This document shows positions 20,155 to 38,065 of a stretch of DNA of 38,065 bases, one piece after another. The notes under the pieces are model-generated. The model was not told the origin of the DNA. It did no database searches and worked only from the letters and a program-made list of their open reading frames with translations. Position numbers and translations under genes: made by a program. Within the stretch, counting starts at the first letter, position 1. Each line of letters starts with the position of its first letter. The DNA is from a bacterium. Its GTDB lineage: Bacteria; UBA6262; WVXT01. Location of the stretch: assembly GCA_046759165.1 (NCBI GenBank), contig JBHIBS010000017.1:1-38065 (forward strand), in the 5' to 3' direction.

Positions 20155-20285
20155 CTTTTAACTTTTGGCCTCTTTCCGACTACGGCATCCCGCCTGTATT
20201 GACTGCATTTGAAAGATACTTTGAGAAGAGCTTTTGGAATTTTAGCCAAAAAACAGGGCGACTTCTTGTCTTCCAAACAAATCAT
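20151..20285 (-). CDS. Putative 44-aa basic Cys-containing small protein between pilM and pilN
   Basis: SD GGGGGTGAT 6 nt before ATG; MICLEDKKSPCFLAKIPKALLKVSFKCSQYRRDAVVGKRPKVKR*; ATGA overlap with pilN start. Confidence 0.45.
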   Translation of the reverse strand: MICLEDKKSPCFLAKIPKALLKVSFKCSQYRRDAVVGKRPKVKR

Positions 20286-20399
20286 TCTCCGATCACCCCC
20301 AAAAGCGAGGAGCAATCTTGATTATTGCTGAGATCTTTGGCAATACTCAAGGACCAGAAAATCCTCAGCGAGCGAAATTCAATCCGAAGCCTGTCTTTC

Positions 20400-21509: not shown

Positions 21510-21532
21510 TTTTTTCCTTTGGTTTCAATCAT

Positions 21533-21562
21533 ATAATATACAATAAAATATTCATTTGTCAA
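21533..21562 (-). promoter_or_regulatory. Sigma70 promoter for pilMNOPQ
   Basis: TTGACA followed by TATATT (16-bp spacer) or TATTAT (18-bp spacer). Confidence 0.6.
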
Positions 21563-21612
21563 CAATTTTTATCCTATCGCCAAAAACAGAATCGAAGGTT
21601 ACTAAAATTTTC

Positions 21613-22437: not shown

Positions 22438-22452
22438 CTCGGACCTCCTTCA

Positions 22453-22483
22453 CCTCGTTAGAAATCAAAGATTTCTAATGGGG
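22453..22483. repeat. REP-like palindrome, second copy
   Basis: CCTCGTTAGAAATC-AAA-GATTTCTAATGGGG; supplies the stop codon of the TPR gene. Confidence 0.75.
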
Positions 22484-23164
22484 GATTACCATATTTTCTA
22501 AATGGCTCTTCGCTGTTGATCTCGCCCACTCATTTCTGCTTGTGGCAAGAATATTTTCCCAGATAGCTATTGCCTTTCCATATTTTCCTTCAGCTTTATA
22601 AATATTGGCGAGAAAAATCTTAACCACTTCAGGGCAGTCTCTATATCTAATCGCCTCCTCCAGAAGAGGAACAACTTTATCATACTCTTTCGTCTTGGTA
22701 TAAACAATCGCTGCTATATAGAGGCGGAACTTCCAGAATTTCGGATTATTCTTAATTCCTTCTCGAAGAAGCTCGATTGCCTGATCGTATCGCCCGTGAT
22801 TAAAGGCAAGAGAGCCACCGCCGAATAGATATGCATAATGGAAATAAGGGTCGAGCCGAACCACCTCCTGACACATGGGCAGTAAATTCTCGTACTCCCC
22901 TCTCTCGTGATGGTGTGGCAAATGAGTGTGCTCTTCTTCTTTTTCCAAAGCCCCATAATACTGCAGGAGTCTTATCCAAGCTAAATCTGAACAGAGTCGG
23001 CGAAGACCGAGCAGGCTCCCCCAGAAATAGATAAAAGAAGAAGGCTTCACCTGTACTATCGATGGCAGAGGAAATTCAAACCTCCTCTCTACCTGGTACT
23101 CAGAGAAAAGAGATAAGCCAAATAGGAACAAGATCAGAATGAGTAGCGAAATGGGCTTCTTCAT
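22475..23164 (-). CDS. TPR protein associated with the pilus ABC system (Myxococcus PilG/Geobacter XapA-like)
   Basis: N-terminal TM, SDLAWIRLLQYYG, LDPYFHYAY, TPR helices; adjacent to the ABC ATPase/permease. Confidence 0.7.
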   Translation of the reverse strand: MKKPISLLILILFLFGLSLFSEYQVERRFEFPLPSIVQVKPSSFIYFWGSLLGLRRLCSDLAWIRLLQYYGALEKEEEHTHLPHHHERGEYENLLPMCQEVVRLDPYFHYAYLFGGGSLAFNHGRYDQAIELLREGIKNNPKFWKFRLYIAAIVYTKTKEYDKVVPLLEEAIRYRDCPEVVKIFLANIYKAEGKYGKAIAIWENILATSRNEWARSTAKSHLENMVIPH

Positions 23165-23192
23165 TTCCTCATCTCAATGAGTCAGAAAACCA

Positions 23193-23966
23193 TCAGAACT
23201 CTTTCCGGGAGAAAACAATAACTGAAAGCCAGGTGGCTACGCTTGCGTAAATTAAGGTATAGGCTACCTGCCAGAAAATAGTAATTCCATCTAAGGGACC
23301 GGGGTAACCCAGGTAGTCCTTAACATTCAAGTACTGAAAATTGGGCAAAAGATAGTAGATTGCTTTTAGAAATATTGTGATTTTTAATCCCTTTTCCAGC
23401 AATACATGATTTAGATATTTCAAATGGTCGGTAACATGACCCAGAATCCATAAGAAGAAAGCGGCAGAGATGCTCGAAATTGCTGAAGTCGAAATCAGAG
23501 AAATAAGAATTGCCAAAGCGCTTATAATTATCACTTTAAGGAAAATAAAAGTTACTGCCAGTAAGAACCTGAAGTCGAATCTCCAACCCTTAATGAATAG
23601 AAGAAATAGGAGCGCAGAGGACATTAAGAGAATATTAAACAAGGAGATAGAGAGAATACCAACGTAACGACCCCAGATATATTCGAAGCGCCTCACCGGT
23701 CTTACCAGAATGAGAGAGACGCTCCTATTCTCCATCTCCCCCAAGACGAGACCAACTGCTGCAAAAACAGCACTAAGGAAAGCAAATATTTCAATTGAAC
23801 CCAGTCCAATATCTAAGATTACCCTCGTCTCCTCTTCTCCTGAAAGCATGGAGAAGAGAACAGAACTCACTATGATCACCAAGGCAAATAGAAGAATAGT
23901 ATAAAAAATCTTGTGCCTGATGTTCTCTTTAACCGTATATTCTCCAATTGCAAATATCTTCTTCAT
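23193..23966 (-). CDS. ABC-2-type permease (Myxococcus PilI-like)
   Basis: About 6 TM helices, EMENRSVSLILVRPVRRFEYIWGRY, YYLLPNF. Confidence 0.85.
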   Translation of the reverse strand: MKKIFAIGEYTVKENIRHKIFYTILLFALVIIVSSVLFSMLSGEEETRVILDIGLGSIEIFAFLSAVFAAVGLVLGEMENRSVSLILVRPVRRFEYIWGRYVGILSISLFNILLMSSALLFLLFIKGWRFDFRFLLAVTFIFLKVIIISALAILISLISTSAISSISAAFFLWILGHVTDHLKYLNHVLLEKGLKITIFLKAIYYLLPNFQYLNVKDYLGYPGPLDGITIFWQVAYTLIYASVATWLSVIVFSRKEF

Positions 23967-24697
23967 TATACTTCCTCGGACACAGTCTCTGCAAAAAGGT
24001 CCTCCAGGCTAACTTCCAGGCCTCCCAACTCAACTACTCTTTTCAATTTTCCCTTATGTAGAATTCCTACCTGGTCGCAGACTCTCTCTACCTCTGTAAC
24101 GAAATGTGAACTCAAAAGTATTGTCTTTCCCTCCTCCTTTAACCTCAGAATTGTCTGGCGCATCTTCTTAACTCCCAGAGGGTCGAGTCCAGAAGTGGGT
24201 TCATCCAATAGCAAAAGTTCTGGGTCGTGCAGAAGAACTTGAGCCATACCTATCCTCTCCAGCATTCCTTTAGAAAAGTCGGTTAAACGGTCGTTTCTGT
24301 TCTCCCTGAGGTCTACCAAATCTAATGTTCTTTCTACTCTATTTGCTCTCTCCTTTAGAGAAAAGTTATAAAGCTTACCATAAAAATGGAGTATCTCACT
24401 CGCCGTAAGATACATAAGGAAACAGGGAAATTCGGGAAGATAACCGACCCTGGAGGGTAGAGATATGTGGGGGACCCTCTGCCCAAAAATATAGGCGGAG
24501 CCTTTTGTTGGAAACAGCAAACCTACCAGAAGCTTAAGCAGGGTTGTCTTTCCTGAACCGTTCAGGCCTAAAAGCCCAAAAACCTTTCTATCTTCGATTT
24601 CGAGATTTAGATTCTCCAGAGCATTGGTCTTCTTTGACGTGAACAGGTATTTTCTCTTATATATTTTTGTCAGACCTTCTGTTCTGATGACAACCAT
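23966..24697 (-). CDS. ABC transporter ATP-binding protein (Myxococcus PilH-like)
   Basis: Walker A GLNGSGKT, signature FSKGM, Walker B LLLLDEP, SSH switch. Confidence 0.92.
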   Translation of the reverse strand: MVVIRTEGLTKIYKRKYLFTSKKTNALENLNLEIEDRKVFGLLGLNGSGKTTLLKLLVGLLFPTKGSAYIFGQRVPHISLPSRVGYLPEFPCFLMYLTASEILHFYGKLYNFSLKERANRVERTLDLVDLRENRNDRLTDFSKGMLERIGMAQVLLHDPELLLLDEPTSGLDPLGVKKMRQTILRLKEEGKTILLSSHFVTEVERVCDQVGILHKGKLKRVVELGGLEVSLEDLFAETVSEEV

Positions 24698-24704
24698 TAG
24701 ATAA

Positions 24705-24788
24705 TAAAAAATAGGTTGATGGTTAATTAATTACTTATCAATTATCATGCCAATTTGTTTAATTCCATTAATTAACACATCAACCTAT
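24705..24788 (-). terminator. Long-stem hairpin plus U-tract downstream of pilA
   Basis: Arms 24711-24731 and 24767-24788 (21 bp, one bulge), 35-nt loop, followed by TTTTT on the minus strand. Confidence 0.65.
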
Positions 24789-24802
24789 GCAGATTCAAAG
24801 GA

Positions 24803-25210
24803 TTACCAGGTATTAACTACGTCGCCTCCCGAATCAACGTGGGTGCAATTAACGTTGCCCGTTCCAGCACCATCATAGAACCACAGGCCATCATCGCCAG
24901 CAACAGCAGTCTCTGCATTCGTCTCCGCATGCCCCATGCTACTAGGAAGCAAGACTGTAGGAACCGCATCTAAGTAAGTTGGGACGAGGGCAGCTAATGT
25001 CGCTGGCCAAGTACCATCGGTAGCACCGTAGCAGATAGACATAGCTGACCTGATGGCTCCGAGGTTACCCTGGGTCCTCGCCTCCCTGGCTCTGTCAATC
25101 AGATTAGCAAATCTGGGGATGGCGATTGCGGCCAAGATGCCAATAATTGCCACCACAATCATTAGCTCAATCAAGGTAAAACCTTTGCTCTTCCTATGAA
25201 TTCTCAACAC
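24803..25210 (-). CDS. pilA: Type IVa major pilin
   Basis: Class III signal MLRIHRKSKG/FTLIELMIVVAIIGILAAIAIP (E5, P22); own promoter, perfect SD and downstream terminator. Confidence 0.9.
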   Translation of the reverse strand: MLRIHRKSKGFTLIELMIVVAIIGILAAIAIPRFANLIDRAREARTQGNLGAIRSAMSICYGATDGTWPATLAALVPTYLDAVPTVLLPSSMGHAETNAETAVAGDDGLWFYDGAGTGNVNCTHVDSGGDVVNTW

Positions 25211-25215
25211 TCTAT

Positions 25216-25265
25216 ATCACCTCCTTTCTATGATATATGTTACCACACTTTTCCCCAGCTGTCAA
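25216..25265 (-). promoter_or_regulatory. Sigma70 promoter (extended -10) and full SD of pilA
   Basis: TTGACA-17 bp-TAACAT preceded by TGn; AAAGGAGGTGAT at 25216-25227. Confidence 0.75.
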
Positions 25266-25290
25266 CTAATTTTCAAATTAAAAGCCGGTT

Positions 25291-26520
25291 TTACCTGCCA
25301 ACCAGCGCACCGATCTGGAACATAGGCATATACATCGAAATGGCAATAGCGCCAATGATAATACCCATAAAAACAATGACTACTGGCTCAATCATGGAAG
25401 TTAGACCTGAAACAGCAGCGTCGACTTCCTGCTCATAAAACTCGGCAATTTTCGATAACATTGCGTCTAAGTTACCTGTCTCCTCGCCCACTGAAATCAT
25501 CTGGGTTACCATTGGTGGAAAGGCACCACTTGCCCTCAAGGGCTCGGATATTCTCTCTCCTTCCCGAATAGCTTCCTTTGCTGCCAGGACAGCTTTTTCA
25601 ATGACTCTATTTCCTGAAGTCCTTGCCACAGTGTCGAGAGCCTGAAGTATTGGAACGCCACTTTTAACCAGCGTCCCGAGAGTCCTGGTAAATTTAGCCA
25701 CAGCTACCTTTCTTAATAGCGCCCCGAAAATGGGCAGTCTGAGCAGCAACCTGTCTATACGCATACTTCCCGCCTCTGTCTTATAGTATTGTCTTAGACC
25801 CACAACAAAAGCAATAAGACCAATAATTATGAAGATAATATAATGCTTAAGAAAATTACTAAGCATAAGGAGTATCTGGGTAGGAAGCGGCAACTGGGCA
25901 CTCACCTGTTGGAATATTTTAACAAAGGCAGGGACAACCACCGTCACCAAGAATGTAGTAACGCCACCGGCAACAAGGGCAATCACTGCCGGATAGACCA
26001 TTGCTGATTTAATCTTTCCTCGCAATGTGGCGGCAGCCTCCTGGTAGCCTGAGATCCTCTCGAGAATAACATCCAAGATACCTCCAAGTTCTCCAGCCTT
26101 CACCATACTGACATATAAGTCACTGAATACTGTAGGGTGCCGGCTGAGAGCTTCAGTAATCGATGTTCCTGACTCGATGTCCTCTCGCACAGTGGTGATA
26201 ACTTTTTTGAAAGCCGGATTATCTATCTGGTTCATAAGGATTGTTAAACCCTGAACAATCGGCACACCAGCTCCAATCAGTGTGGATAGCTGCCGGCTAA
26301 ATAGAACGAGGTCCTTATGTCTTACTTTTCGTTTCAAGAAGTTTATACTATCCAGAGCATCTCTTAAAGCATTCTTTTTAGATTCTCCGATTTCCAAAAC
26401 GATAAACCTCTGGCGTCTGAGGCGATCGATAACCATCCTCTGTTCTCTCGCTTCCATTGTCCCCGTCAAAACATTTCCCTGGGGACTCCTGACCTTATAA
26501 CTGAAGAGTGCCATTCTCAC
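25291..26520 (-). CDS. pilC: Type IV pilus platform protein PilC
   Basis: FSRQLSTLIGAGVP, KIKSAMVYP, VGEETGNLDAML, SMIEP. Confidence 0.95.
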   Translation of the reverse strand: MRMALFSYKVRSPQGNVLTGTMEAREQRMVIDRLRRQRFIVLEIGESKKNALRDALDSINFLKRKVRHKDLVLFSRQLSTLIGAGVPIVQGLTILMNQIDNPAFKKVITTVREDIESGTSITEALSRHPTVFSDLYVSMVKAGELGGILDVILERISGYQEAAATLRGKIKSAMVYPAVIALVAGGVTTFLVTVVVPAFVKIFQQVSAQLPLPTQILLMLSNFLKHYIIFIIIGLIAFVVGLRQYYKTEAGSMRIDRLLLRLPIFGALLRKVAVAKFTRTLGTLVKSGVPILQALDTVARTSGNRVIEKAVLAAKEAIREGERISEPLRASGAFPPMVTQMISVGEETGNLDAMLSKIAEFYEQEVDAAVSGLTSMIEPVVIVFMGIIIGAIAISMYMPMFQIGALVGR

Positions 26521-26521
26521 C

Positions 26522-27616
26522 TCACCTCTTGTTCTTCATCCCCACCACCACATCCTCTTCCTTCTTGCAAATTCTCTTTAAATCCTCGACATCCGGACTC
26601 TCTGTCAAGGCCTGAGCGTAAGTGATCTGCCTACGCGTGTAGAGGTCGTAGAGGCTCCAGTTCATTGTCTGCATTCCAAATTTTCCTCCTGCCTGCATAG
26701 CTGAAGGAATCTGCTCGGCCTTCTCTTCCCTTATCATATTCCTGATGGCTGGAGTAATCCTTAAAACTTCCACTGCCAGGCATCTCCCGTTGCCATTCGC
26801 TTTGGGGAGTAATCTCTGACAGAAAACGGCTTGCAGGACAAAGGATAACTGAGAACGAATTTGCGGTTGCTGGTATGGAGGGAAAACATCTATGATTCTA
26901 TTAACTGATTGTGTGGCATCTGTTGTGTGCAGAGTGGCAAAGACCAGATGCCCTGTCTCAGCGATTGTTAGTGCGGAAGCAATAGTTTCCAGGTCACGCA
27001 TTTCGCCAACCAGAATGAAATTTGGGTCCTGGCGAAATACATGTCTTAGTGCCTCGGCAAAGGAAGAAGTATCACTACCTACCTCTCTCTGGCTGACTAT
27101 ACAACTCTTGTGGGCATGAATGTACTCGATGGGATCCTCAACTGTAACAATGTGTCCGCTCCGGTGCTCGTTAATGTAATTTATCATTGAAGCAAGGGTT
27201 GTCGTCTTACCACAGCCGGTAGGACCTGTTACTAGGACCAAGCCGGCAGGCAACTTAAGCACGTCAAAAACTACTGGTGGCAGTCCGAGTTCCTCAAAAG
27301 TCATAAAATAGTTAGGTACTGCCCTCAGAGATGCAGCTACGATCCCTCGTTGCCTGAACACGTTCATTCGAACACGTCCTATGTTTTTGATTCCAAAGGA
27401 GAGGTCGAGCTCGTTTGTAGATTCAAATCTCTCTTTCTGTTTATCGGTTAGGAGGCTATAGATTAGTCTCTGACATTGGTCCGGGTGAAGCTTCTCATAT
27501 TCTGTGGGGACAAGTTCTCCATCAATCCTCAAGGTAGGTGGAGCATCCACTGTTAAGTGCAAATCGGATGCTCCCTTGTCCATGGTTAATTGAAGTAATT
27601 CATCAATAGAGACCAA
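26522..27616 (-). CDS. pilT: Type IV pilus retraction ATPase PilT
   Basis: ASDLHL, GPTGCGKTT, EDPIEY, GEMRD, TLHT, AIRNMIRE. Confidence 0.95.
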   Translation of the reverse strand: MVSIDELLQLTMDKGASDLHLTVDAPPTLRIDGELVPTEYEKLHPDQCQRLIYSLLTDKQKERFESTNELDLSFGIKNIGRVRMNVFRQRGIVAASLRAVPNYFMTFEELGLPPVVFDVLKLPAGLVLVTGPTGCGKTTTLASMINYINEHRSGHIVTVEDPIEYIHAHKSCIVSQREVGSDTSSFAEALRHVFRQDPNFILVGEMRDLETIASALTIAETGHLVFATLHTTDATQSVNRIIDVFPPYQQPQIRSQLSFVLQAVFCQRLLPKANGNGRCLAVEVLRITPAIRNMIREEKAEQIPSAMQAGGKFGMQTMNWSLYDLYTRRQITYAQALTESPDVEDLKRICKKEEDVVVGMKNKR

Positions 27617-27634
27617 AAATCACTCCTTCTAATA

Positions 27635-29383
27635 TCATCCGACATCAGCAAATGTGACCCTCATCACCTCTTCAACTGTGGTTACACCTGCCAAAAGTTT
27701 CTTGATGGCAGCCTCTCGTAAAGTTAGCATGCCACACTCTCTCGCTTTTGCCTTGATCAAATGCGTCGATTCCCTATTTATGACAAGCTCCCTTATATCG
27801 TCAGTAATTTCCATAACCTCAAAGCACGCTGTCCGTCCCCGATAACCAGTGTTACTGCAGTTATCACACCCTTTGCCCCGATACAGGGTCACTTTCTTTT
27901 CACGTTTTATCTCTTCATCTTTGACTCCGATACCTGAAAGGAAATCGGCCGGAACCTCGTAGGGTTCCTTACAATGTTTACAGATTACCCTAATTAATCT
28001 CTGAGCAACAACCATAACTACTGTTGAAGTGGTCAGGAAAGGTTCGATGCCCATATTATTCAAACGGGTCACAGCACCCGGAGCATCGTTAGTGTGAAGA
28101 GTAGAAAATACTAAGTGTCCCGTCAGTGCTGCATTAATGGCGATCTCAGCAGTCTCAGTATCCCGGATTTCACCAACCATAATTATATCCGGGTCCTGAC
28201 GCAAAAATGACCTCAGACCAGCCGCAAAAGTTAAACCGATGTCCGGTTTTGCCTGTACTTGGTTGATGCCTTGCAGGACATATTCTACAGGGTCTTCTAT
28301 GGTGATGATGTTACGGTCAGGATAATTGAGAGTGCTGAGAGTAGAATAGAGGGTGGTAGATTTACCAGAACCGGTTGGCCCTGTATCCAGGATGATTCCA
28401 TAAGGCACTTCGATATTCTTCTTGTAAATGGAAAGAACTTCTGATTCAAATCCGAGCTTGGTCAAATCGAGACACAAAGAGGAAGCATCCAGAATACGCA
28501 TAACCACTTTCTCGCCGAAGGAAGTAGGTAGAACAGAGACCCTCAGGTCAACCTCTTTATCCATCACTCTAATCTTAATTCTACCGTCCTGGGGCAAGCG
28601 GCGTTCAGCAATGTCCAGTGAAGCCATAATCTTTAACCGAGAAACAACTGCATTCTGCAATTTCTTGGGCGGGGCAGACACTTCATGTAAGACCCCATCG
28701 ATTCGATAACGCACCCTGAGCATCTTCTCATAAGGCTCGATATGGACGTCCGAAGCCCCTGATTTGACAGCTCCGGTCAAGACAAGGTTCACGATCTTAA
28801 TTACCGGCGCCTGTTCTCCAGCCGTCTCCAGAGCAATGATATCCTCTCCTCCGGACTCGCTCATTCTCACTACCTCTACATTTTCCTCACCCTCTGCCGA
28901 GAGTTCCATCTCTTTCAAGATATCTCCCATAGAGCCTTTAGCTCCATAATACCTCTCAATAGCATTCGTAATCTCACTGTCTGAGGCAATCACTACATTA
29001 ATTTCTTTCCCTGTCATCAGTCTCAGATCATCAATGGCAAAGACATTTAATGGGTCACTCATTGCTATTGTGAGGGTTTTCCCGTCAAGCGCAATTGGAA
29101 TTAGGGTTTGATGCCTTGCGACGCTCTCTGGAACACTTTTAATGACCTCTTCGTCAATTTCCCCATATTCAGATAGGCTAACGTAAGATACACCGCACTG
29201 TTTACCCAGGAAAGCTAATAAAACATCCTCAGTAATATAGCCCAGTTCCATGAGGACTTCACCCAACTTGCCTCCCCTGATTTTTTCTTCCTCTAAAGCT
29301 TCTTGCAATTGTTCGGCTGTAATTATCCCCACTTCTACTAATAAGTCACCCAATTTCTTTCTTATTGCCACACCCCTAGCCAT
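27635..29383 (-). CDS. pilB: Type IV pilus extension ATPase PilB with N-terminal MshEN-like domain
   Basis: ASDVHIEP, GPTGSGKST, RQDPD, CKHC...CDNC, GYRGR. Confidence 0.95.
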   Translation of the reverse strand: MARGVAIRKKLGDLLVEVGIITAEQLQEALEEEKIRGGKLGEVLMELGYITEDVLLAFLGKQCGVSYVSLSEYGEIDEEVIKSVPESVARHQTLIPIALDGKTLTIAMSDPLNVFAIDDLRLMTGKEINVVIASDSEITNAIERYYGAKGSMGDILKEMELSAEGEENVEVVRMSESGGEDIIALETAGEQAPVIKIVNLVLTGAVKSGASDVHIEPYEKMLRVRYRIDGVLHEVSAPPKKLQNAVVSRLKIMASLDIAERRLPQDGRIKIRVMDKEVDLRVSVLPTSFGEKVVMRILDASSLCLDLTKLGFESEVLSIYKKNIEVPYGIILDTGPTGSGKSTTLYSTLSTLNYPDRNIITIEDPVEYVLQGINQVQAKPDIGLTFAAGLRSFLRQDPDIIMVGEIRDTETAEIAINAALTGHLVFSTLHTNDAPGAVTRLNNMGIEPFLTTSTVVMVVAQRLIRVICKHCKEPYEVPADFLSGIGVKDEEIKREKKVTLYRGKGCDNCSNTGYRGRTACFEVMEITDDIRELVINRESTHLIKAKARECGMLTLREAAIKKLLAGVTTVEEVMRVTFADVG

Positions 29384-29987: not shown

Positions 29988-32051
29988 TTATCCCACACTT
30001 GCTAGGCCGAATCTCTTTCTAAATTTCTCTTTAAACATTTGTCTAATTACTCCGTTTTCCGGAAGAGTTAGAAAAGGGTCTCTATTAATCAGATGGAAGG
30101 CTGCCCGGCGTGCCAGTTCTAATTCACGATAGTCAGAAACAATATTACCAATTTTAAATTCAGGAAACCCGTGCTGTTGAGTGCCAAAGAATTCCCCAGC
30201 ACCGCGCAACCTCAAGTCCTCTTCTGCGATGCGAAATCCATTGTTAGTTTCCATCATAATTTGTAATCTTTTTTTTGCTTCCTCTGTTTTAGGTTGTCCA
30301 AGCAAAACGCAAAGGGACTGTTCAGTACCTCTCCCCACCCTTCCCCGCAATTGGTGCAGAGTAGCCAACCCAAACCTTTCGCTGTGCTCAATAACCATCA
30401 AACAGGCATTGGCCACATCGATACCCACCTCAATTATGCTAGTGGTAATCAAAATATCAAATTCCTTGTTCAAAAATTTCATCATCACGTGTTCCTTCTC
30501 TTCACTCTTCATCTGGCCGTGCAGGAGACCAACCCTGAAGTCTCTAAATACAGTAGCTATCAATCTCTCTGCCATTTTCACTGCAGCGCGTAATTCCAAC
30601 TTATCCGATTCATTAATTATTGGATAGACAATATAAGCCTGCTGTCCTTTTCTCACCCCTTCTATAACCATCAGATAAGCCTCCTCCTCAGAAAGTCTCT
30701 GGGTGAGGACCTTTCTCCTTCCAGGCGGCAATTGATCGATTACAGAAACGTCCAGATCTCCATAAACTGTTAGGGCTAATGTGCGAGGTATTGGCGTGGC
30801 TGTCATTACCAGAATATCCAGATTTTCTCCCTTCTTCCTCAACCTTGCCCTCTGCATAACTCCAAACTTATGCTGTTCGTCAATGACTGCCAGAGCTAAA
30901 TTGGAAAATTTGACCCCCTTTTCAATTAATGCGTGAGTGCCGATAATTATCTGAGATTCGCCCCGGGCAATTCTCTGGTAAAGTTCTCTCTTCCTCTTCT
31001 GTCCCATTCTCCCTGTGGCCAATTCCACTTTAACTTCTAAACCCTCTAGCATCTGGCGCAAGGTTAGATAATGTTGTTCAGCCAGAATTTCAGTGGGAGC
31101 CATCACTGCAGCCTGATACCCGTTCTCCACAGCTAAGAGAAGAGCTGCCAGCGCCACCACTGTCTTACCACTTCCCACATCTCCCTGGAGCAGCCTGTTC
31201 ATTGGCCTGGGCGATATGAGGTCATCAAAAATTTCTCTGATTACTCTTTTCTGAGCAGAGGTGAAATCGAAAGGTAACTTCTGTTTGAAGGCTGTTAAGA
31301 GATTTTTTTTCACCCGATACTTCCTATTCTTCTCCATCATCTTCACACGCCGTCTTCTCAACGCCATAGCCAATTCCCAGAAGAAAAATTCCTCAAATAT
31401 GATTCTTCTCCGGGCCGCCTCTCCCTTTTCCCAGCCGGAGGGAAAGTGCATATTATATACAGCTTCTTGATAAGGCATCAAGTTATATTCTCTGAGGATG
31501 GTTTCAGATAGGGTCTCTTTTAAATAGGAAAGGTATGAATCGAGCGCTCTCTTAATCAGCGTCCTTAAGAAACGCAGATTCAGTTTTGGGGTAACTTGAT
31601 ATATGGGGACAATTCTTTTAGTATGAATTAAGTCATCTTCTTTTCCTGCTAGTTTCTCGTAAGTAAAATTGGTAACCTGCAAATCACGAAAGGTGCGTTC
31701 AAATTTCCCGTGCAGAACAACTGAAGTGCCAGGAGGGAGGGAATCTTTCAAGTAGAGCTGGTTAAAGCAGACCATTGTTGCCCTGCTACTGCCATCTTCA
31801 AGGAGAATCTTCAGAAGGGGCTTTCCACCTTTGGTAAATGTAATCTGATGCTCGGCAACTACTGCCAGGACTGTGGCTTCTTCCCCATGGGTGATTTGTG
31901 CAAAGAGCTTCAAACGGGCGCGATCTTCATGTCGGAAGGGAAAATAAGTAACAAGGTCTCCCACTGTCTCAATGCCGATTTTCTTCAATATTCTTGCTCT
32001 CTCGGGTCCCACACCCTTCAAGAACTGAACCGACATATTCAAATCTTTCAT
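29988..32051 (-). CDS. recG: ATP-dependent DNA helicase RecG
   Basis: LKGVGP, QGDVGSGKT, DEQH, TATPIPRT, LHQLRGRVGR, DLRLRG. Confidence 0.97.
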   Translation of the reverse strand: MKDLNMSVQFLKGVGPERARILKKIGIETVGDLVTYFPFRHEDRARLKLFAQITHGEEATVLAVVAEHQITFTKGGKPLLKILLEDGSSRATMVCFNQLYLKDSLPPGTSVVLHGKFERTFRDLQVTNFTYEKLAGKEDDLIHTKRIVPIYQVTPKLNLRFLRTLIKRALDSYLSYLKETLSETILREYNLMPYQEAVYNMHFPSGWEKGEAARRRIIFEEFFFWELAMALRRRRVKMMEKNRKYRVKKNLLTAFKQKLPFDFTSAQKRVIREIFDDLISPRPMNRLLQGDVGSGKTVVALAALLLAVENGYQAAVMAPTEILAEQHYLTLRQMLEGLEVKVELATGRMGQKRKRELYQRIARGESQIIIGTHALIEKGVKFSNLALAVIDEQHKFGVMQRARLRKKGENLDILVMTATPIPRTLALTVYGDLDVSVIDQLPPGRRKVLTQRLSEEEAYLMVIEGVRKGQQAYIVYPIINESDKLELRAAVKMAERLIATVFRDFRVGLLHGQMKSEEKEHVMMKFLNKEFDILITTSIIEVGIDVANACLMVIEHSERFGLATLHQLRGRVGRGTEQSLCVLLGQPKTEEAKKRLQIMMETNNGFRIAEEDLRLRGAGEFFGTQQHGFPEFKIGNIVSDYRELELARRAAFHLINRDPFLTLPENGVIRQMFKEKFRKRFGLASVG

Positions 32052-32085
32052 GATAATTACAAAAATAGTAAGGTAGCACGCAACC

Positions 32086-32285
32086 TTTGTGGTTAAAAAG
32101 GCAGTTTATTCGTCTCTGGCAATTTTTTTAACGTTGCGGGAGCCATCTCTCCATAGATGCAAAAGCAAACTCGTTCCGACTACGTCGGAACTCGGACAAG
32201 CTTTTGCTAGATTAGAAAGATAGCCGAGATGGCTTCCTCACTAAAAATTGCAACGCTCCTCACAAACTGTCCTTTTAACTACAAA
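32086..32285. repeat. ~200-nt nested inverted-repeat element (MITE-like or structured RNA)
   Basis: Five nested arm pairs: 32086-107/32264-285, 32119-127/32243-251, 32138-149/32226-237, 32159-166/32200-207, 32173-180/32184-191. Confidence 0.8.
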
Positions 32286-32318
32286 AGATTTTTTGTGCTT
32301 TTTGATACTAAAATACTC

Positions 32319-32347
32319 TTGCAATTATTTTTATATTTTGCTAAACT
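32319..32347 (+). promoter_or_regulatory. Sigma70 promoter for rpmB
   Basis: TTGCAA-17 bp-TAAACT with TGn extension; GGGAGG SD downstream. Confidence 0.65.
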
Positions 32348-32373
32348 ACTAAAAATCTTATGGGAGGACGCAA

Positions 32374-32565
32374 TTGCCTAAGAAATGCGTAATCTGCGGT
32401 AAATCTGTGCGCTCTGGTTCCAATATCAGTCACTCCCACCACAAAACAAAACGAAAATTTAAACCCAATTTACAGAAAGTGAACATAATTCTAAATGGAA
32501 GAAAAAAGAGAGCCTACGTATGTACGCAATGCATTGCCGGAGGCAAAATCATAAAACCCGCCTGA
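32374..32565 (+). CDS. rpmB: 50S ribosomal protein bL28 (Zn-binding C+ form)
   Basis: CVICGK..GSNISHSHHKTKRKFKPNLQ..VCTQC; TTG start. Confidence 0.96.
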   Translation: MPKKCVICGKSVRSGSNISHSHHKTKRKFKPNLQKVNIILNGRKKRAYVCTQCIAGGKIIKPA

Positions 32566-32578
32566 AGTCCTTGCCAAT

Positions 32579-33565
32579 TCAAAAAATTAGACTCAAAGAA
32601 CAGAGATAACTATAAACAGGACCCTGGATACCATCGAGATAATATCTCTTGACGGCAAAATCTAAAAGATATAAGCCTCTGTTGTAACCAAAACCACAGG
32701 TATAATTCACTTTCCTCTTTTCACTCAAATTCTCACCGAACATTCCCAGCCGAAGAGAAGTATTGCGAGCAAGAATATACTCCAACCCGAAGTGGTAAAC
32801 TGCCAGGGATTTCGCACCACCATTTTCTTTTGCATAGAATCTCTGCTCAAAATCGGAAGCAAGGGTCAAAAGTTCTGCTATCTTCATCCCCATACCTACT
32901 CTGAGATTTAATGGCAAGCGATCTGAACGGTAGTCACTCCAGTAGATGTAAGCAGGACCATTCTCTAAGGAAATTCCAAGCTTGAGTAATGGTGAATGAG
33001 TGTAAATTATCCCCCAATCTAAACCCCACCCATTTCCTGTAGAGATGTTTGCGTGAGGCGGAGGGCCATCTTGAGCAATTCCCAGCGAGCCATACAGATA
33101 GCTTATATTCATGCCAAAAGAAATCTTTGAACTATAGGGAATAGCAAAGGAGAAGGTATATTTGTTGATATTAATCTCTCGCTCGGAGTAGGGGAGGTTA
33201 TCTTCTTCTCTGAAATTGGATAACGATCGCCAGCTCAACCCGCCCCGACTACTACAAAAAGATAAGTAAGTGAACCACTTGCCCTGCAAGGGCTCTCTGT
33301 TTACAATATCCTCTCTTTTCGCCCCACTCCTTGCCAGATCAAACATAAGAGTACATAGATTGCTCTCTAAGAAAACCAATCCAGCAGGATTCCAGTAAGG
33401 AGCATCGGCGTTGTCGACTAAAGCAACAAACGACTCCCCCATTCCGCTTGGCTTCGCTCCTATAGGTATGCCGTCAAAAGAATTATAGAGAATGGGAGAA
33501 GACTCTTTAGCAAAACAGAAAATAGCTGAAAAGAATATTAGAGAGACAACAATGGAAACCTTCAA
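32579..33565 (-). CDS. PorV/PorQ (FadL-like) outer-membrane beta-barrel protein
   Basis: Signal peptide, IGAKPSGMGESFVALVDNADAPYWNPAGL, amphipathic strands, C-terminal Phe. Confidence 0.75.
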   Translation of the reverse strand: MKVSIVVSLIFFSAIFCFAKESSPILYNSFDGIPIGAKPSGMGESFVALVDNADAPYWNPAGLVFLESNLCTLMFDLARSGAKREDIVNREPLQGKWFTYLSFCSSRGGLSWRSLSNFREEDNLPYSEREININKYTFSFAIPYSSKISFGMNISYLYGSLGIAQDGPPPHANISTGNGWGLDWGIIYTHSPLLKLGISLENGPAYIYWSDYRSDRLPLNLRVGMGMKIAELLTLASDFEQRFYAKENGGAKSLAVYHFGLEYILARNTSLRLGMFGENLSEKRKVNYTCGFGYNRGLYLLDFAVKRYYLDGIQGPVYSYLCSLSLIF

Positions 33566-33591
33566 TATAGTCTCCTTGAAGGAAGTTTATA

Positions 33592-34704
33592 TCATCCATT
33601 ACATTTTTTGACTATTTTCTTTATTGTTCCTCCTCCCAGGACCACATCTCCATCGTAAAAGACTAGCGCCTGACCAGGAGTAGCTGATCGAACAGGCTTT
33701 CTGAACCTGACTAATGCTCTTCCATCACCCAGAGGAGATACTACTGCTTTCTCCCCTGCGTGGTTGTATCTTATTTTAGCTACTACTTCCAGGTCTTCTT
33801 CCGCTTCTTCCTGTAATATGAAATGTAAGTCCTCTGCAATAAGTTCCTCAGAAAATAGCCCCTTTTCAGGACCCACGGCGATCCTGTTATGCTCAGGATC
33901 TATTGAAATCACATAAAAAGGTCTTCCATAAGCTCCGATTCCTCTCCTCTGACCAACAGTATAAGAAGCTATACCCTCGTGCCCACCCAGAACATTTCCG
34001 TTGACATCAACTATCTCTCCGGGAATGGAAGGGAAGTGAGAAGATAAAAATTTTCGGTAATCTCCATCTATAAAACAGATCTCTTGACTTGCTTCCTTCT
34101 CAGCTACAGACAAGCCAAATTTTTTGGCGATCTTTCGGACCTCTTCCTTCCCGTAACCTCCTAAAACCATTAAAATTCGTGCCATCTGCTCTTGTGTTAG
34201 AGTATACAAGAAGTAGGACTGTTCTCCATTCCCTTGTACTCCTTTTCTCAGAAGATATCGTCCGGACTTCTTTTCTATTCTGGCGTAATGGCCTGTGGCT
34301 AAATATTGAGCCCCTAACTCTTCTGCTTTTTCCAATAGAAGTTTGAATTTTATCTCCCGATTACAGAGAATACAGGGATTGGGAGTCCTGCCTCTCCGGT
34401 ACTCCTGGCAGAAATGGTCAATAACCTTCTCCTGAAATTCCTTCTGGAAATTTAAGACATAAAAGGGAACTTTCAACTTGAGCGCCACACTTCGCGCATC
34501 ATTGATCCCCTGTAGACTACAACAGCGATTCTTTCGGAAGGATGGATGAAGAGTCTCCTCACAAAAAGGATAGAGGTACATAGATATTCCGATTACATCG
34601 TATCCTTCCTCTTTCAGTATTGCTGCTGTAGTCGAGGAATCGACCCCGCCAGACATTGCCACCACTACTCTTTTCATCATTCGATACTCTCTTAGAAATA
34701 GCAC
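33592..34704 (-). CDS. mnmA: tRNA-specific 2-thiouridylase, C-type
   Basis: AMSGGVDS, TPNPCILCN, ATGHY, QSYFL, SQEICF, YTVGQRRG, TPGQ; start may be ATG 34680. Confidence 0.96.
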   Translation of the reverse strand: MLFLREYRMMKRVVVAMSGGVDSSTTAAILKEEGYDVIGISMYLYPFCEETLHPSFRKNRCCSLQGINDARSVALKLKVPFYVLNFQKEFQEKVIDHFCQEYRRGRTPNPCILCNREIKFKLLLEKAEELGAQYLATGHYARIEKKSGRYLLRKGVQGNGEQSYFLYTLTQEQMARILMVLGGYGKEEVRKIAKKFGLSVAEKEASQEICFIDGDYRKFLSSHFPSIPGEIVDVNGNVLGGHEGIASYTVGQRRGIGAYGRPFYVISIDPEHNRIAVGPEKGLFSEELIAEDLHFILQEEAEEDLEVVAKIRYNHAGEKAVVSPLGDGRALVRFRKPVRSATPGQALVFYDGDVVLGGGTIKKIVKKCNG

Positions 34705-34712
34705 CCTTTCTT

Positions 34713-34799
34713 CTTTTAAGCTCTTAATCTTTTAGTCTTTTAAACTCTTAGTCTTTTAGTGTTTTAAGCTTTTAGTCTTTTAGTCTGTTAAGCTCTTAT
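34713..34799. repeat. Degenerate 8-bp tandem array with 24-bp higher-order period
   Basis: CTTTTAAG CTCTTAAT CTTTTAGT / CTTTTAAA CTCTTAGT CTTTTAGT / GTTTTAAG CTTTTAGT CTTTTAGT / CTGTTAAG CTCTTAT. Confidence 0.9.
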
Positions 34800-35209
34800 C
34801 ATTCGAACTCTATCTGAATGACCCCAAGGGGACAGGCGGGTAGGCAGAGCCCACAGAGGAGGCATCTGTCCCGATCGAATTCCAATTTCCAGCTCTCTGT
34901 ATTCATTGAGAGCGCCTTTGGACTGCAGACAGCTATACACGCCCCACACGAGATACATTCCTCATCATTTAGTTTTATATCCTTGGCCAGTGGCTGGATA
35001 CCAACTTTCTTATCTTCCAGATATTTCACACCTTTATTAATTACTTCCGTGTCCCCTTCCAATTCCAGCACCATTTTCCCTTCCTCTTTAGGTGTGACCT
35101 GAGCGCGCAGGATATTTAGAACTAAATCGTAATTCTTGACCAGGCGGTAAATTATTGGTTGATCAACCAATTCGGGAGGAAAAGTTAAAACTATTCTCTT
35201 TTTCGCCAT
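34799..35209 (-). CDS. NIL domain + 2[4Fe-4S] ferredoxin (MA1822-like partner of ASA sulfurtransferase)
   Basis: PIIYRLVKNYDLVLNILRA; CISCGACIAVCS and CLLCGLCLPACP. Confidence 0.9.
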   Translation of the reverse strand: MAKKRIVLTFPPELVDQPIIYRLVKNYDLVLNILRAQVTPKEEGKMVLELEGDTEVINKGVKYLEDKKVGIQPLAKDIKLNDEECISCGACIAVCSPKALSMNTESWKLEFDRDRCLLCGLCLPACPLGVIQIEFE

Positions 35210-35227
35210 CCAAACCTCCTCAACTGC

Positions 35228-36385
35228 TCAGACATTAATGTCTAAAGGCTTAAATTTCTCATCCACCGGTAGTCGTTGAATAGGCTCTTGTAAAAAGAAT
35301 TTCCCCTTTTTAATCCAATCTTTCAGAATCTGAGCTATCTCTCTGGCTTTGTAAAGGCTGGAGAGTGGTGCAGTGGGAATTTTCTTCCCTCTTATTTCGA
35401 TTTCGCCGCTCCTTAACTCCTTATAGCTTACTCTGCCCAGACTTGGTTTTTCTCTTCTGGGAAGACTGTAATCAACCACTGTAGTATATATCTCATCGTC
35501 AGAGACGGAGACAAAATGTGCCATCTCTTCATCGAGGATAGGAATGGGTATCCCAATCCCTACAATAAGGGTAACACCATACCTGTAGAAGATTGCTGCC
35601 CTCAAAAAATTGCGGCTCATCTGTTTCAAATTGCCTATCAGACAAAGGGTACCTGCGGGAGCCATCGGTATTTTAGTTTTCTCATTCCTCACTTGGAGGG
35701 GATTATGTTGTGTTCCCTCCCAGGCAATGTAACCCTGTGCTCCGCCGAGAAATATCCTGCTCCCCACACCAATAGTGCGATATAAAGGATCGTTAATTAG
35801 AGGGGAAAGCTGTGAACAGTTACAATAATTTGCATTGCCGAAGTTTGGCAATAGAACGCCCATATATGTATAGATTGTTCTATCCGATGAGTTAGTAGCT
35901 ACTGAATAATTTTGATAAGCGTTCCTTGGATTGAAAAGAATTGCCTGATTGATTGAGCTTAAGGTAATGTAAGATTCGAATTCTTTTCTGGGATAACAAT
36001 CTGTTCCATATGCAGTAGCTTTAAGCCTCACCTTTTTACCCGAGATCAAATCCTCAATCACATGTGCCCCACCATATTCCATCCCTCTGGCCTCAGAAAG
36101 CTCAGTTGCTCCAATATAAGCATCAACTGCCGCTACCCCCGCATAAGCTGGAACATTGTTCAGCCATACCTTCTGCATCTTTATAGGCGGATCGGTATGC
36201 CCGAAATTCAGTAAAGCTCCAGAGGAACACATTGGCCCAAAGGTAGCTGTGGTTACCACGTCTACTTCCTTAGCAACTCTCTTTTCCCCTTTCCCTCTTA
36301 CGAGGTCAATAACCTCTTCAGCAGTTACCACCACGGCTTCACCCTTTCTAATCTTTTCATTAATCTCTGCAAAAGTTTTAGCCAT
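35228..36385 (-). CDS. L-aspartate semialdehyde sulfurtransferase (DUF39/COG1900, MA1821-like), homocysteine biosynthesis
   Basis: EINEKIRKGEAVVVTAEE, VDVVTTATFGPMCSSG, TDCYPR, NPRNAYQNY, GIGIPIPIL; no C-terminal CBS domains. Confidence 0.9.
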   Translation of the reverse strand: MAKTFAEINEKIRKGEAVVVTAEEVIDLVRGKGEKRVAKEVDVVTTATFGPMCSSGALLNFGHTDPPIKMQKVWLNNVPAYAGVAAVDAYIGATELSEARGMEYGGAHVIEDLISGKKVRLKATAYGTDCYPRKEFESYITLSSINQAILFNPRNAYQNYSVATNSSDRTIYTYMGVLLPNFGNANYCNCSQLSPLINDPLYRTIGVGSRIFLGGAQGYIAWEGTQHNPLQVRNEKTKIPMAPAGTLCLIGNLKQMSRNFLRAAIFYRYGVTLIVGIGIPIPILDEEMAHFVSVSDDEIYTTVVDYSLPRREKPSLGRVSYKELRSGEIEIRGKKIPTAPLSSLYKAREIAQILKDWIKKGKFFLQEPIQRLPVDEKFKPLDINV

Positions 36386-36407
36386 CCATTCCTCCTATGC
36401 AAATCTT

Positions 36408-37208
36408 TTAACCGTCAATCTTGAGCCTCTTCTTCCCGATGTCATCGATTACCTTCTGGTGTCTTTTGCAAAATTCGGGCTTATTCAACTGCGCATTTAT
36501 CACTTCCTCCTGCCAGTGTGCATTATAAAGCCTACATTTGTTATCTTCACAAAAGGGCTCACCCGATATGGAAAAAAATAGAGCCTGCATGCAATAGCCT
36601 TTCATTACTTCGGTCAGCCGTGGATCGTCGTAGTCAATAAACTTCTCTCTAAATCTATTCTTCAGGGTAATTGTATCAATTCCCAATTGCTTCTGTAAAT
36701 AGAACTTTCTCGGCTTAGCTGGAGCTTCCACGATGCCTGTAGTGGAAATAATGGAGGGAAACCCATACACGCTTACCCGGGCATGGTAACGACGGTTATT
36801 TTCATCCCAAGTACCGAATAGTTGGTCTGTAAAAATAATCACCAGACAATGCCAGTTACGTTCTTCCTCTTTTATCAAGTCCTGATATAATGCCTGGAGC
36901 TTCAAGCCATCGTAAAGTATGCCAAAACTTCTATTCTCTGAATTTTGGAGTCTCCTTTTCTCGTATTCCACCTCAGCAGCTAGTGGATGAAAAGTGGGGT
37001 AGTGGCTGCGAAGGTCTCGAATCTTACATCTGGCTATCTCCTCAGCCAACTCTCTTAGGGAGGAATCCTCCATTCCCTTCGTAACTTCAGCAATGAAATT
37101 GCCCCTAACCTCAACCTTAACGCCACCCGACTTCTCCTTCAGATACCGCGCTATTTCCGTAATGTTTAGGGATTGAGTCTTGCTACCATCATAAAGAAAA
37201 ATTTTCAT
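36408..37208 (-). CDS. Uncharacterised archaemetzincin-like protein (DUF6775-like from memory)
   Basis: [19 protein letters not shown]-x4-C ([15 protein letters not shown]) and C-x2-H (FCKRH); no HExxH. Confidence 0.65.
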
Positions 37209-38002
37209 TTCTCCTTGATACTCAACTTTTCCAATACTATCTCCGCACCTCTCTTTCCAGAAAAAAGCATTGCACCAAAAGTAGGTCCCATCCTAGGAAG
37301 ACCATAAGTAGTGGCCACAGCCATGCCCACTACTACAAGGCCGGGATAGGCTTCCCCAGTATGCTCCACTACGAGATTCTCAGACCTCTCAAGCCACATT
37401 GCTCCAAAGCCCTCCATCTTTATTAGTTTCCTCTCTTCAAGTTTTCTCACTACCGAGGCATCGTGTCCAGTCGCATCGATTACCATTCTGGCTTCTAAGG
37501 CCACAGGGTCAACACAGGTGATCTCACGAGGTAAAGACGATATAGGAGTCCAGTTGACTACAGCACCATTCACTCTACCTCCTTCCCGGAGCACAAGGTC
37601 GTCAAAAACGGTCATACTGGCAAACTTCACACCACTGTCACAGGTAGCTCCAATAAGTTTCGAACAAGCATGAGGTCCATCTGCTACATAGAGCCCCTCG
37701 CTCACTTCCTCATACGGCACAGCCAGTTCTTCCAGGATTTTCTGTGCAGGTTCTCTCACTGTTATTTTATTCATTAAGTACCCACCAATCCAGAAACCCC
37801 CACCAAGATAATTATTTCTCTCTATAATTAAGACTTTAAGTCCTTTGGTGGCCAGTTCTTTTCCCGCCATTAGTCCACTGGGCCCACCACCCACAATAAG
37901 ACAATCGCTTTCCACATACTCGGAAAACTGCCTGGCAAACTCATCTACAATAGCTCGAGTAACCTCTTTTTCTCCCACTGGTGCAAATAGTTTCTTGTCC
38001 AT
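37205..38002 (-). CDS. thi4: Thi4-family adenosine-diphosphate thiazole synthase, Cys type
   Basis: [37 protein letters not shown]. Confidence 0.93.
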
Positions 38003-38065
38003 ATTCTTCTCCTTTCGCTTCGCTCAATCCGACCGGGGCGCTCACCGTCTCGCGCCCGCGCCTTT

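Follow-up and report, generated by a model that had tools for sequence, protein, structure and literature searches.

The Cys-type Thi4 gene and its DUF6775 neighbour form a conserved prokaryotic module that probably supplies Thi4 with a dedicated partner

Introduction

Why should the gene for a thiazole synthase that gives up its own sulfur overlap the gene for a protein that resembles a protease without its active site? The question is raised by one end of the 38,065-nt contig JBHIBS010000017.1 (assembly GCA_046759165.1; hereafter the window, meaning this whole stretch of DNA), which comes from a bacterium of the GTDB lineage UBA6262 and in which a thi4 gene of the cysteine-donating (Cys) type shares four bases with a gene for a 266-aa protein of the DUF6775 family. 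Suicide Thi4s are among the costliest enzymes known, one protein being spent per thiazole, and crop engineers have declared it an aim to replace or rescue them (PMC10127261; 10.1101/2020.04.29.067249). Here we examine whether the DUF6775 protein is tied to Cys-type Thi4, and argue that it is probably a dedicated partner of the enzyme.

An initial sequence-only reading of the window had proposed an accessory or repair factor, which might re-sulfurate, metallate, unload or dispose of spent Thi4, and was not aware of any such system in the literature. On that last point it has been overtaken, because the association, the fold and the accessory (metallochaperone) hypothesis are all in print (Oliveira-Filho, Van Gelder, Obe, Voiniciuc, Wilson, Hanson; bioRxiv 10.1101/2025.09.23.678117, September 2025; ACS Omega, June 2026, PMC13325395), and the window is one more instance. 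In that study DUF6775 was the commonest neighbour of 'suicide' Thi4 genes, found in about two-thirds of the genomes, which numbered more than 400, and followed by ThiF, CysK, ThiS, NifS, MnmA and others; an AlphaFold 3 model, which has three Cys and one His but lacks HExxH, resembled 3LMC and the archaemetzincin 2X7M; and a metal chaperone, possibly with a non-suicidal operation of Thi4, was proposed. Five DUF6775 proteins, one from an archaeal metagenome and four others, were all insoluble when expressed alone, so that the authors were unable to test the metallochaperone idea. Their work was the only literature found under the names of the family, and also the only one on an archaemetzincin together with Thi4.

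The window shares with the published system the family PF20565, an active-site-Cys Thi4 as the partner, a sulfur-relay neighbourhood including MnmA and HcyBio, the structural reading and the kind of accessory or metallochaperone hypothesis, and it shows in addition the ATGA overlap and a run of thi4-DUF6775-HcyBio-NIL ferredoxin-mnmA. The words 'riboswitch', 'CinA', 'pyrophosphatase' and 'hydrolysis' do not occur in the main text of PMC13325395, and a second conserved residue set in DUF6775, extra cysteines in Thi4 and a fusion with MnmA are not discussed in that text. As far as checked, what is new here is that second residue set, the Thi4 cysteines C113 and C121, the Chloroflexota riboswitch operons and one DUF6775-MnmA fusion.

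Results

Thi4 of the window carries the donor cysteine

The window Thi4 matched NCBIfam TIGR00292 with 248 bits (cut-off 148.3), and its best solved relatives were 6hk1, 4y4n, 4y4m, 7rk0 and 1rp0. By pairwise alignment to these structures, the loop around Cys163, which the sequence-only reading had singled out within a TCVDP motif, aligned gap-free to that of Arabidopsis THI1 (1rp0), so that the residue coincides with the sacrificial Cys, while the sulfide-using enzymes have His (6hk1, 4y4n and 4y4m) or Met (7rk0) at this position and a donor loop three residues shorter. On this alignment the window enzyme is assigned, by family and donor residue, to the Cys type (EC 2.4.2.60); the non-Cys donor residue that marks the sulfide-dependent type (EC 2.4.2.59) is lacking from it. 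TIGR00292 is named 'sulfide-dependent adenosine diphosphate thiazole synthase' and was matched above its cut-off despite the sacrificial Cys; judged from the donor residue, the model is thus blind to the two Thi4 types, and in automatic annotation all of the Cys-type group will receive the wrong label. The overlap that had been described between this gene and that of the 266-aa protein was likewise found (Table 1), and an AAGGAG lies 2 nt 5′ of the DUF6775 ATG.

A thi4-DUF6775 module specific to Cys-type Thi4

When one genome of each GTDB species was scanned with a pattern, 426 confirmed DUF6775 matches emerged, and the best 80 loci (L001-L080) were taken with up to 10 kb of flank. All 80 are contigs of metagenome-assembled genomes (MAGs), and the 63 that were placed in a tree fall under 17 phylum labels of both bacteria and archaea. 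Open reading frames (ORFs) were called in each locus and then searched with the five window proteins. No p-value is offered, since these are related loci, picked for their likeness to the query. Less than 400 nt of upstream DNA was available in six of them (L035, L039, L041, L050, L056 and L063), hence 74 loci are informative about what precedes DUF6775.

In 67 of the 80 loci, and so in 67 of the 74 informative ones, a same-strand thi4 gene lies directly upstream of DUF6775. With partner starts estimated from the alignment rather than mapped, these 67 junctions comprised 10 overlaps, 52 gaps of 0-35 nt and five longer gaps (median 17 nt), and the 4-nt overlap of the window recurred in L001-L005 and L066. 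The donor Cys was present in 68 of 70 aligned Thi4 ORFs, the other two being fragments that stop short of the position, and also in the separately aligned Thi4 of L070. Counted per locus, 69 of 70 Thi4s have the donor Cys, one is cut by the contig end, and none has His or another residue. The sequence-only reading had called for a comparison of adjacency to Cys- and His-type Thi4, and these counts, taken from DUF6775 loci, point to the Cys type. A published survey that took in about 1000 prokaryote THI4s retained 199 unique non-Cys sequences, and non-Cys thi4 genes cluster with genes for TRASH-domain proteins instead (PMC8454699). Thus, the pairing of Thi4 and DUF6775 goes beyond chance, and the two genes form a conserved, widespread module specific to Cys-type Thi4.

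In the DUF6775 tree, archaeal and bacterial groups interleave, which suggests that the module has probably moved between lineages, including between the domains. A few loci depart from the usual arrangement. The thi4 gene of L065 is broken into two ORFs (5685-5909 and 5909-6484) by a frameshift that is either an assembly error or the mark of a pseudogene. One MAG has two DUF6775 copies (L039 and L047), each followed by a gene for an NFACT-R_2/ThiI-type PP-loop protein, the L047 copy being without thi4 in its flank; DUF6775 genes without an adjacent thi4 adjoin genes for FdhD and a BioB-like protein in L019 and a ThiI-like gene in L052, and L044 is also without thi4. The family may therefore serve, or travel with, other sulfur-inserting enzymes. 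In L056 (38-643, MNXB01000108.1), from Elusimicrobia bacterium CG1_02_37_114, a DUF6775 gene cut by the contig start is followed by a BioB-like gene; Table S3 of PMC13325395 scores the same genome as without DUF6775 near thi4, and given this gene the published count of 26 in 40 genomes is probably a lower bound.

DUF6775 is modelled as an archaemetzincin-like protein that has lost the protease site

The window protein matched PF20565 with E 2.5e-97 and 325.8 bits (cut-off 27), its residues 2-256 of 266 covering positions 4-258 of the 259-position profile, and it matched the overlapping PF22529 (DUF7001) with 288.8 bits. Pfam labels DUF6775 a 'probable metallopeptidase family'. These two were the only Pfam matches; PF07998, the archaemetzincin family (M54), gave none at E<=0.01, and no NCBIfam model matched the protein. 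The AlphaFold 2 model, built from a 38-sequence alignment, has a pLDDT (predicted local distance difference test) of 90.2 and a predicted TM-score (pTM) of 0.88. Among solved structures Foldseek ranked 3lmc (E 7.7e-4) and the archaemetzincin 2x7m (E 1.0e-3) best, with probability 1.00, then AmzA (3zvs and 4axq), the remaining hits being unconvincing; the TM-scores, 0.41-0.45 for the query and 0.55-0.64 for the target, are modest. When the family profile was searched against the sequences of solved structures, no archaemetzincin appeared even at E<=10, the two hits being at chance level. The modelled fold is archaemetzincin-like, as the sequence-only reading had supposed.

The archaemetzincin motif is quoted as HEXXHXXGX3CX4CXMX17CXXC (PMC13325395), and its latter part is nearly matched by the spacing in the window protein, G216-x3-C220-x4-C225-x-L227-x19-C247-x2-H250. 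All four residues of the predicted metal site, C220, C225, C247 and H250, are invariant in 197 of 197 DUF6775 sequences. In a divergent set of 137 aligned sequences (the window protein and 136 representatives 30-51% identical to it), the three Cys were kept in 137 and H250 in 135, with Cys in the remaining two. By its spacing, the retained Cys3His corresponds to the structural site of archaemetzincins.

The catalytic part of the motif has fared otherwise. Neither HExxH nor HxxEH occurs anywhere in the window protein. At the place of the would-be HExxH, 180 of 197 sequences have Ala at position 209, 195 have Leu, Ile or Val at position 210 and none has Glu there, and 137 have His at position 213 (Ser in the window protein); the third-ligand position, 219, is occupied by Phe throughout the 197. 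Judged from these residues, the ancestral protease zinc site is gone throughout the family, and since the structural Cys3His alone has been kept, DUF6775 is not a metzincin protease. Its resemblance to the archaemetzincins of family M54 (AmzA 2X7M, 3ZVS and 4AXQ; 3LMC) thus extends to the fold and to a G-x3-C-x4-C-x-(M/L)...C-x2-(C/H) pattern of nearly the same spacing; it differs from them in having a Cys3His rather than a Cys4 site, in the replacement of HExxHxxGxxH, in the missing PF07998 match, in some 85 additional residues and in invariant residues of its own. Outside DUF6775, the closest Atlas clusters that bear a name have PF07998, which is a lead only.

DUF6775 is a large family, with 3029 relatives at E<=1e-5 in a protein set clustered at 90%, and 568 members at E<=0.001 in a profile search of 1.84 billion representatives. 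Proteins of stand-alone size are the rule (168-350 aa for all of 150 representatives among the matches listed), and none of the 150 profile matches listed bridges to M54, all being family members. The only longer protein found among fused forms (519 aa, 45% coverage) has no extra Pfam domain, and neither have six further forms of 302-350 aa. The fusion search showed no Thi4-DUF6775 fusion, which by the nature of the search is weak evidence. The sole informative fusion seen is a 641-aa ORF in L070, an Elusimicrobia MAG (9992-11917, plus strand), which follows immediately on a Cys-type thi4 and has DUF6775 as its residues 3-257 and a complete MnmA as 259-635; it may be a genuine fusion, or the stop that separated adjacent genes may have been lost.

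A second set of conserved residues in DUF6775

Besides the metal site, DUF6775 has near-invariant residues, some of them in two motifs, RYHAR and NAHWQ, both of which had been picked out beforehand together with the C-x4-C and C-x2-H pairs and the missing HExxH, and all of which were found in the protein. Among the 197 sequences, H142, H231, E79, D195, K203, Q208, Q233 and F219 are present in all. In the divergent set, H142 was found in 135, H231 in 131 and Q233 in 134 of 137 sequences; H142, Q233, Y99, S155, G158, A164 and Y170 are conserved at >=97%, and E83, R140, R144, D195, R197, Q208, N229 and H231 at 90-97%. Such conservation of polar residues suggests a ligand, metal or active site, or else a very exact interface, and H142, H231, E83, D195, R140, R144, Q208, N229 and Q233 could form a new site. 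The term non-catalytic, given to the protein by the sequence-only reading, thus holds for the ancestral metzincin site and does not extend beyond it. No Cys outside the metal site is conserved in the 197 sequences (C61, C121 and C206 of DUF6775 vary), so that DUF6775 itself is unlikely, from its residues, to be a persulfide carrier.

Two extra cysteines in DUF6775-linked Thi4

In all 63 full-length Thi4 sequences (62 from the loci and that of the window) Cys is found at position 163 and also at both positions 113 and 121. None of the five solved Thi4s (6hk1, 4y4n, 4y4m, 7rk0 and 1rp0) has Cys at the positions aligned to C113 and C121. Compared by eye in Table S2 of PMC13325395, an Omnitrophica Thi4 with a DUF6775 neighbour carries both, and the Methanobacterium MB1 Thi4, which has no DUF6775 within ten genes, keeps Cys113 and has Met at 121. 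With one sequence set against one, a link between Cys121 and DUF6775 is a lead rather than a result. From bacteria to archaea the linked Thi4s differ unusually little, with pairwise identities of 58-100% (median 73%); the DUF6775 median is 49%.

Sulfur-relay neighbours and thiamin riboswitch operons

In the window, the module heads a same-strand run in which mnmA is the final sulfur-using gene (Table 1). HcyBio and a NIL-domain ferredoxin, which make up a sulfide-dependent homocysteine route, directly follow DUF6775 (34799-36385, minus strand); the sole NCBIfam match of this HcyBio is methanogenesis marker 16, far under the cut-off (146 versus 364 bits). Neighbours across the 80 loci were counted by phmmer with a few chosen Pfam-identified seeds, a procedure that misses ORFs below 50 aa and undercounts the short ThiS; for L043-L080, Pfam annotation covers selected ORFs only. 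The counts were 24 loci for ThiF, 21 for HcyBio, 20 for proteins of the cysteine-desulfurase type, 19 for CysK-like proteins, 18 for the NIL-ferredoxin, 12 each for NFACT-R_2/ThiI-type and other PP-loop proteins, 10 for Rrf2 regulators, nine each for short ThiI-like proteins and MnmA, four for BioB-like proteins and two for ThiE, whose gene lies directly 3′ of DUF6775 in L059 and L063. At least one sulfur-mobilising or sulfur-using gene was present in 53 of 80 loci, in agreement with PMC13325395. The closest relatives of the window locus (L001, L002 and L005; 74-87% identity) have a class-V aminotransferase gene of the cysteine-desulfurase type immediately 5′ of thi4, and by analogy such a gene may lie just past the window end.

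Thiamin pyrophosphate (TPP) riboswitches were found in four of 36 loci scanned with Rfam (L043, L061, L062 and L071), all from Chloroflexota. All four Chloroflexota loci with thiC upstream show the order riboswitch-thiC-thi4-DUF6775-cinA on one strand, and cinA lies directly 3′ of DUF6775 in five loci (L043, L050, L061, L062 and L071). No sulfur-relay gene adjoins the module in the Chloroflexota operons, and for this reason they tie DUF6775 to thiamin synthesis itself and not to general sulfur metabolism. The N-terminal domain family of CinA includes an ADP-ribose pyrophosphatase, and CinA is a candidate for hydrolysis of ADP-thiazole or recycling of NAD. The sequence-only reading had found a Cys-type enzyme unexpected beside sulfide-using ones; the juxtaposition recurs, with HcyBio in 21 of the 80 loci, but it is not universal, as the Chloroflexota module stands in a plain thiamin operon.

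Some further features of these loci are recorded here. In the riboswitch operon of L061, an ORF with a DarT (single-stranded DNA ADP-ribosyltransferase) domain lies between thiC and thi4 (7891-9066, plus strand); nothing like it is present in the other 79 loci. An Rrf2 gene is found just 5′ of thi4 in L025 (8118-8582) and L070 (8755-9177) and 3′ of DUF6775 in L026 (1575-1820); Rrf2-family regulators sense Fe-S or cysteine status. Rfam found no TPP riboswitch in the L025 and L070 loci.

In the window itself nothing matched Rfam at the gathering score, and the 166 bases at the thi4 end gave chance-level matches only; because the window ends 63 nt 5′ of thi4, the leader region of the gene is not judgeable. 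A promoter and terminator scan of 32000-38065 gave nothing decisive. The remaining genes of the window are those for type IV pili, polysaccharide, recG and a cytidylyltransferase-like protein (PF01467). A long type IV pilus cluster (16718-29383, minus strand) encodes secretin, PilO, PilN, PilM, a prepilin peptidase, a PilC-like protein, two ATPases and a pilin, and with its secretin suggests that the bacterium is diderm. The closest DUF6775 loci, however, belong to MAGs labelled 'Clostridia', and the closest named DUF6775 protein is from an Elusimicrobiota MAG.

Table 1. Features of the thi4-DUF6775 region of the window, and riboswitches of four related loci
Feature	Position	Strand	Basis or remark
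thi4, Cys-type ADP-thiazole synthase (predicted)	37205..38002	-	265 aa; Pfam PF01946, E 2.8e-68
Codon of Thi4 Cys163, sulfur-donor position	37514..37516	-	TGT, within ITCVDP
Codons of Thi4 Cys113 (37664-37666) and Cys121 (37640-37642)	37640..37666	-	invariant in DUF6775-linked Thi4s
ATGA overlap of thi4 stop and DUF6775 start	37205..37208	-	4 shared bases
DUF6775 gene, archaemetzincin-like protein (by model)	36408..37208	-	266 aa; PF20565 and PF22529
RYHAR (residues 140-144), near-invariant R140, H142, R144	36777..36791	-	family alignment
Residues 209-213 (ALFFS), place of would-be metzincin HExxH	36570..36584	-	motif spacing from G216 and C220
NAHWQ (residues 229-233), near-invariant N229, H231, Q233	36510..36524	-	family alignment
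Cys3His site, C220-x4-C225 and C247-x2-H250	36459..36551	-	sequence motif
HcyBio, COG1900-type homocysteine-synthesis sulfur-incorporation enzyme	35228..36385	-	PF01837, E 3.4e-159; 22 nt 3′ of DUF6775
NIL-domain 2x[4Fe-4S] ferredoxin, usual HcyBio partner	34799..35209	-	PF09383 and Fer4 families; 18 nt after HcyBio
mnmA, tRNA 2-thiouridine synthase	33592..34704	-	NF001138, 426 bits (cut-off 284); 94 nt after ferredoxin
TPP riboswitch, L043	267-368		Rfam
TPP riboswitch, L061	6302-6405		Rfam
TPP riboswitch, L062	89-195		Rfam
TPP riboswitch, L071	4860-4959		Rfam

Discussion

We conclude, with a probability of about 0.8, that DUF6775 is a dedicated and roughly stoichiometric partner of Thi4, on the grounds that the fixed gene order with a short or overlapping junction is found in both domains, that the pairing is exclusively with the Cys type, that the protease site has been lost, that the gene belongs to the thiamin regulon in Chloroflexota and that, as published, the protein is insoluble when expressed alone, as an obligate subunit might be. 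The module would thus consist of two genes, a Cys-type Thi4 followed by its accessory protein, which in the window heads a run of sulfur-using genes. DUF6775 would descend from an archaemetzincin-type metalloprotease whose catalytic zinc site was lost and whose structural Cys3His was kept, and, made together with Thi4, would bind it roughly one to one. Its role is a more tentative matter. Possibly, as Oliveira-Filho et al. proposed, it delivers or retains the metal (Fe2+ or similar) that is weakly bound in the Thi4 active site and required there for sulfur transfer, and such activity would be placed at the family-specific H142, H231, E83 and D195 and not at the inherited Cys3His. What we infer here is the physical contact of the two proteins, any metal beyond the structural one, and which way a transfer would run.

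The suggestion of metal loading draws on the labile nature of the Thi4 metal, on the lack of a free Cys in DUF6775, on operons without sulfur-relay genes and on a parallel at the non-Cys Thi4s. There, in many archaea and bacteria, TRASH-domain proteins, small Cys-rich metal-binders, are encoded beside Thi4 and have been proposed to serve its metal; in fold and motif they are unrelated to DUF6775, and their partner is the non-Cys, sulfide-dependent Thi4 (PMC8454699).

Several observations weigh against this explanation. Mass spectrometry with inductively coupled plasma (ICP-MS) on DUF6775 inclusion bodies showed no metal, a result that the authors deem uninformative, and in Table S3 DUF6775 is near Thi4 in 26 of 40 genomes and stands by none of the Thi4s of haloarchaea and several methanogens (PMC13325395). 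From its absence near these Thi4s it follows that DUF6775 is not required by every Cys-type Thi4 or by the chemistry as such; nor is it confined to anaerobes, and the idea of an anaerobe-only gene was dropped, as it adjoins Thi4 in ammonia-oxidising Thaumarchaeota in the same table. In our loci, thi4 lies 1.8-4.7 kb upstream of DUF6775 in three (L011, L059 and L074) and is missing from the fetched flank in four of the 74 informative ones (L019, L044, L047 and L052). Many neighbours are sulfur-relay rather than metal genes. The Cys3His, structural by its motif spacing, says little about metal delivery, and the placing of H142, H231, E83 and D195 in one putative site goes by their conservation. 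Lastly, although a mirror-tree comparison of Thi4 and DUF6775 gave a Pearson correlation of 0.66, reached in 0 of 999 permutations, the rank correlations (Spearman) were alike with the HcyBio control (Thi4-DUF6775 0.52, Thi4-HcyBio 0.48, DUF6775-HcyBio 0.57), so this unspecific co-divergence is not counted as evidence of co-evolution.

The neighbouring sulfur genes bring up a different role, in which DUF6775 would guide sulfide or persulfide sulfur so that Cys163 is spared, or would re-add sulfur to the dehydroalanine, and so permit multiple turnovers of Thi4. We regard this as rather unlikely. It would explain why no His-type Thi4 is among the 70, why sulfur-mobilising or sulfur-using genes occur in 53 of the loci and a cysteine-desulfurase-type gene precedes thi4 in the closest relatives, and what the invariant C113 and C121 are for, since Cys pairs of this kind are used by persulfide-relay enzymes. 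DUF6775 itself, though, has no conserved free cysteine for the usual persulfide carriage, and the Chloroflexota operons have no sulfur-relay gene beside the module. From the published work come the Met at 121 of the Methanobacterium MB1 Thi4 (one comparison), a weaker complementation by one Cys-type Thi4 in a host without thiF and thiS, and the sulfur insertase LarE, cited as a precedent for dehydroalanine repair (PMC13325395). LarE is sacrificial too, giving its Cys sulfur and ending as dehydroalanine, from which Cys can be regained by a known route, but its repair is by a small-molecule persulfide without a dedicated protein, and it has no sequence relationship to DUF6775 (as cited in PMC13325395). 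Catalytic operation is not known for any Cys-type Thi4; the catalytic cereal THI4s are non-Cys and were dropped as a precedent for catalytic Cys-type enzymes. In its boldest form, which we consider a long shot, DUF6775 would be the first dedicated rescue factor of a suicide enzyme, docking on Cys-type Thi4 and using its own His/carboxylate site together with Cys113 and Cys121 of Thi4 to recharge Cys163 with sulfur drawn from sulfide or from a persulfide relay, or to supply such sulfur in its stead.

Three other explanations concern what becomes of the product, of the spent enzyme or of the genes. It is improbable that DUF6775 binds the tightly held ADP-thiazole and releases it, or hydrolyses it to thiazole phosphate in a new active site. 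We know of no enzyme assigned to the latter step; R140, R144, K203, Y99, Y170, Y205, W232, H142, H231, E83 and D195 would resemble a nucleotide or phosphate pocket, and the module occurs in TPP-regulated thiamin operons and beside ThiE. Non-Cys Thi4s, however, yield the same product and none of them is among the 70 Thi4s of the DUF6775 loci, CinA is the better candidate for a hydrolysis step, and to our knowledge eukaryotes manage without DUF6775, as do haloarchaea (Table S3, PMC13325395). Suicide enzymes need clearing, and the metzincin-like fold of the model and the Pfam label could point to a protease or protease adaptor that disposes of spent, dehydroalanine-bearing Thi4; such a role is scarcely to be expected when all three ancestral zinc ligands and the catalytic Glu are replaced in the window protein and no family sequence has Glu at its position, and the constant gene order, with its overlap or minimal gap, suggests that the two proteins are made in stoichiometric amounts, for which a protease acting catalytically would have no need. 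The two genes might finally have no direct functional link and merely travel together in a mobile sulfur or thiamin cluster, as the interleaved tree and a rank-based co-divergence no stronger than with HcyBio would allow. This we hold to be very unlikely, because the other neighbours vary by phylum while the order, strand and spacing of thi4 and DUF6775 are fixed in 67 of 74 loci, and a pair that survives reshuffling usually marks a functional pair.

What remains of value is the function of a family of about 570 clusters, for which the DUF6775 residues, Cys113 and Cys121 of Thi4 and the riboswitch operons provide handles. If the rescue described above were true, a 'single-turnover' thiazole synthase would work catalytically in the prokaryotes, many in number, that carry the pair. 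A partner that keeps Cys-type Thi4 metallated, or repeatedly turning over, would change the view of this enzyme class and supply a part for engineering.

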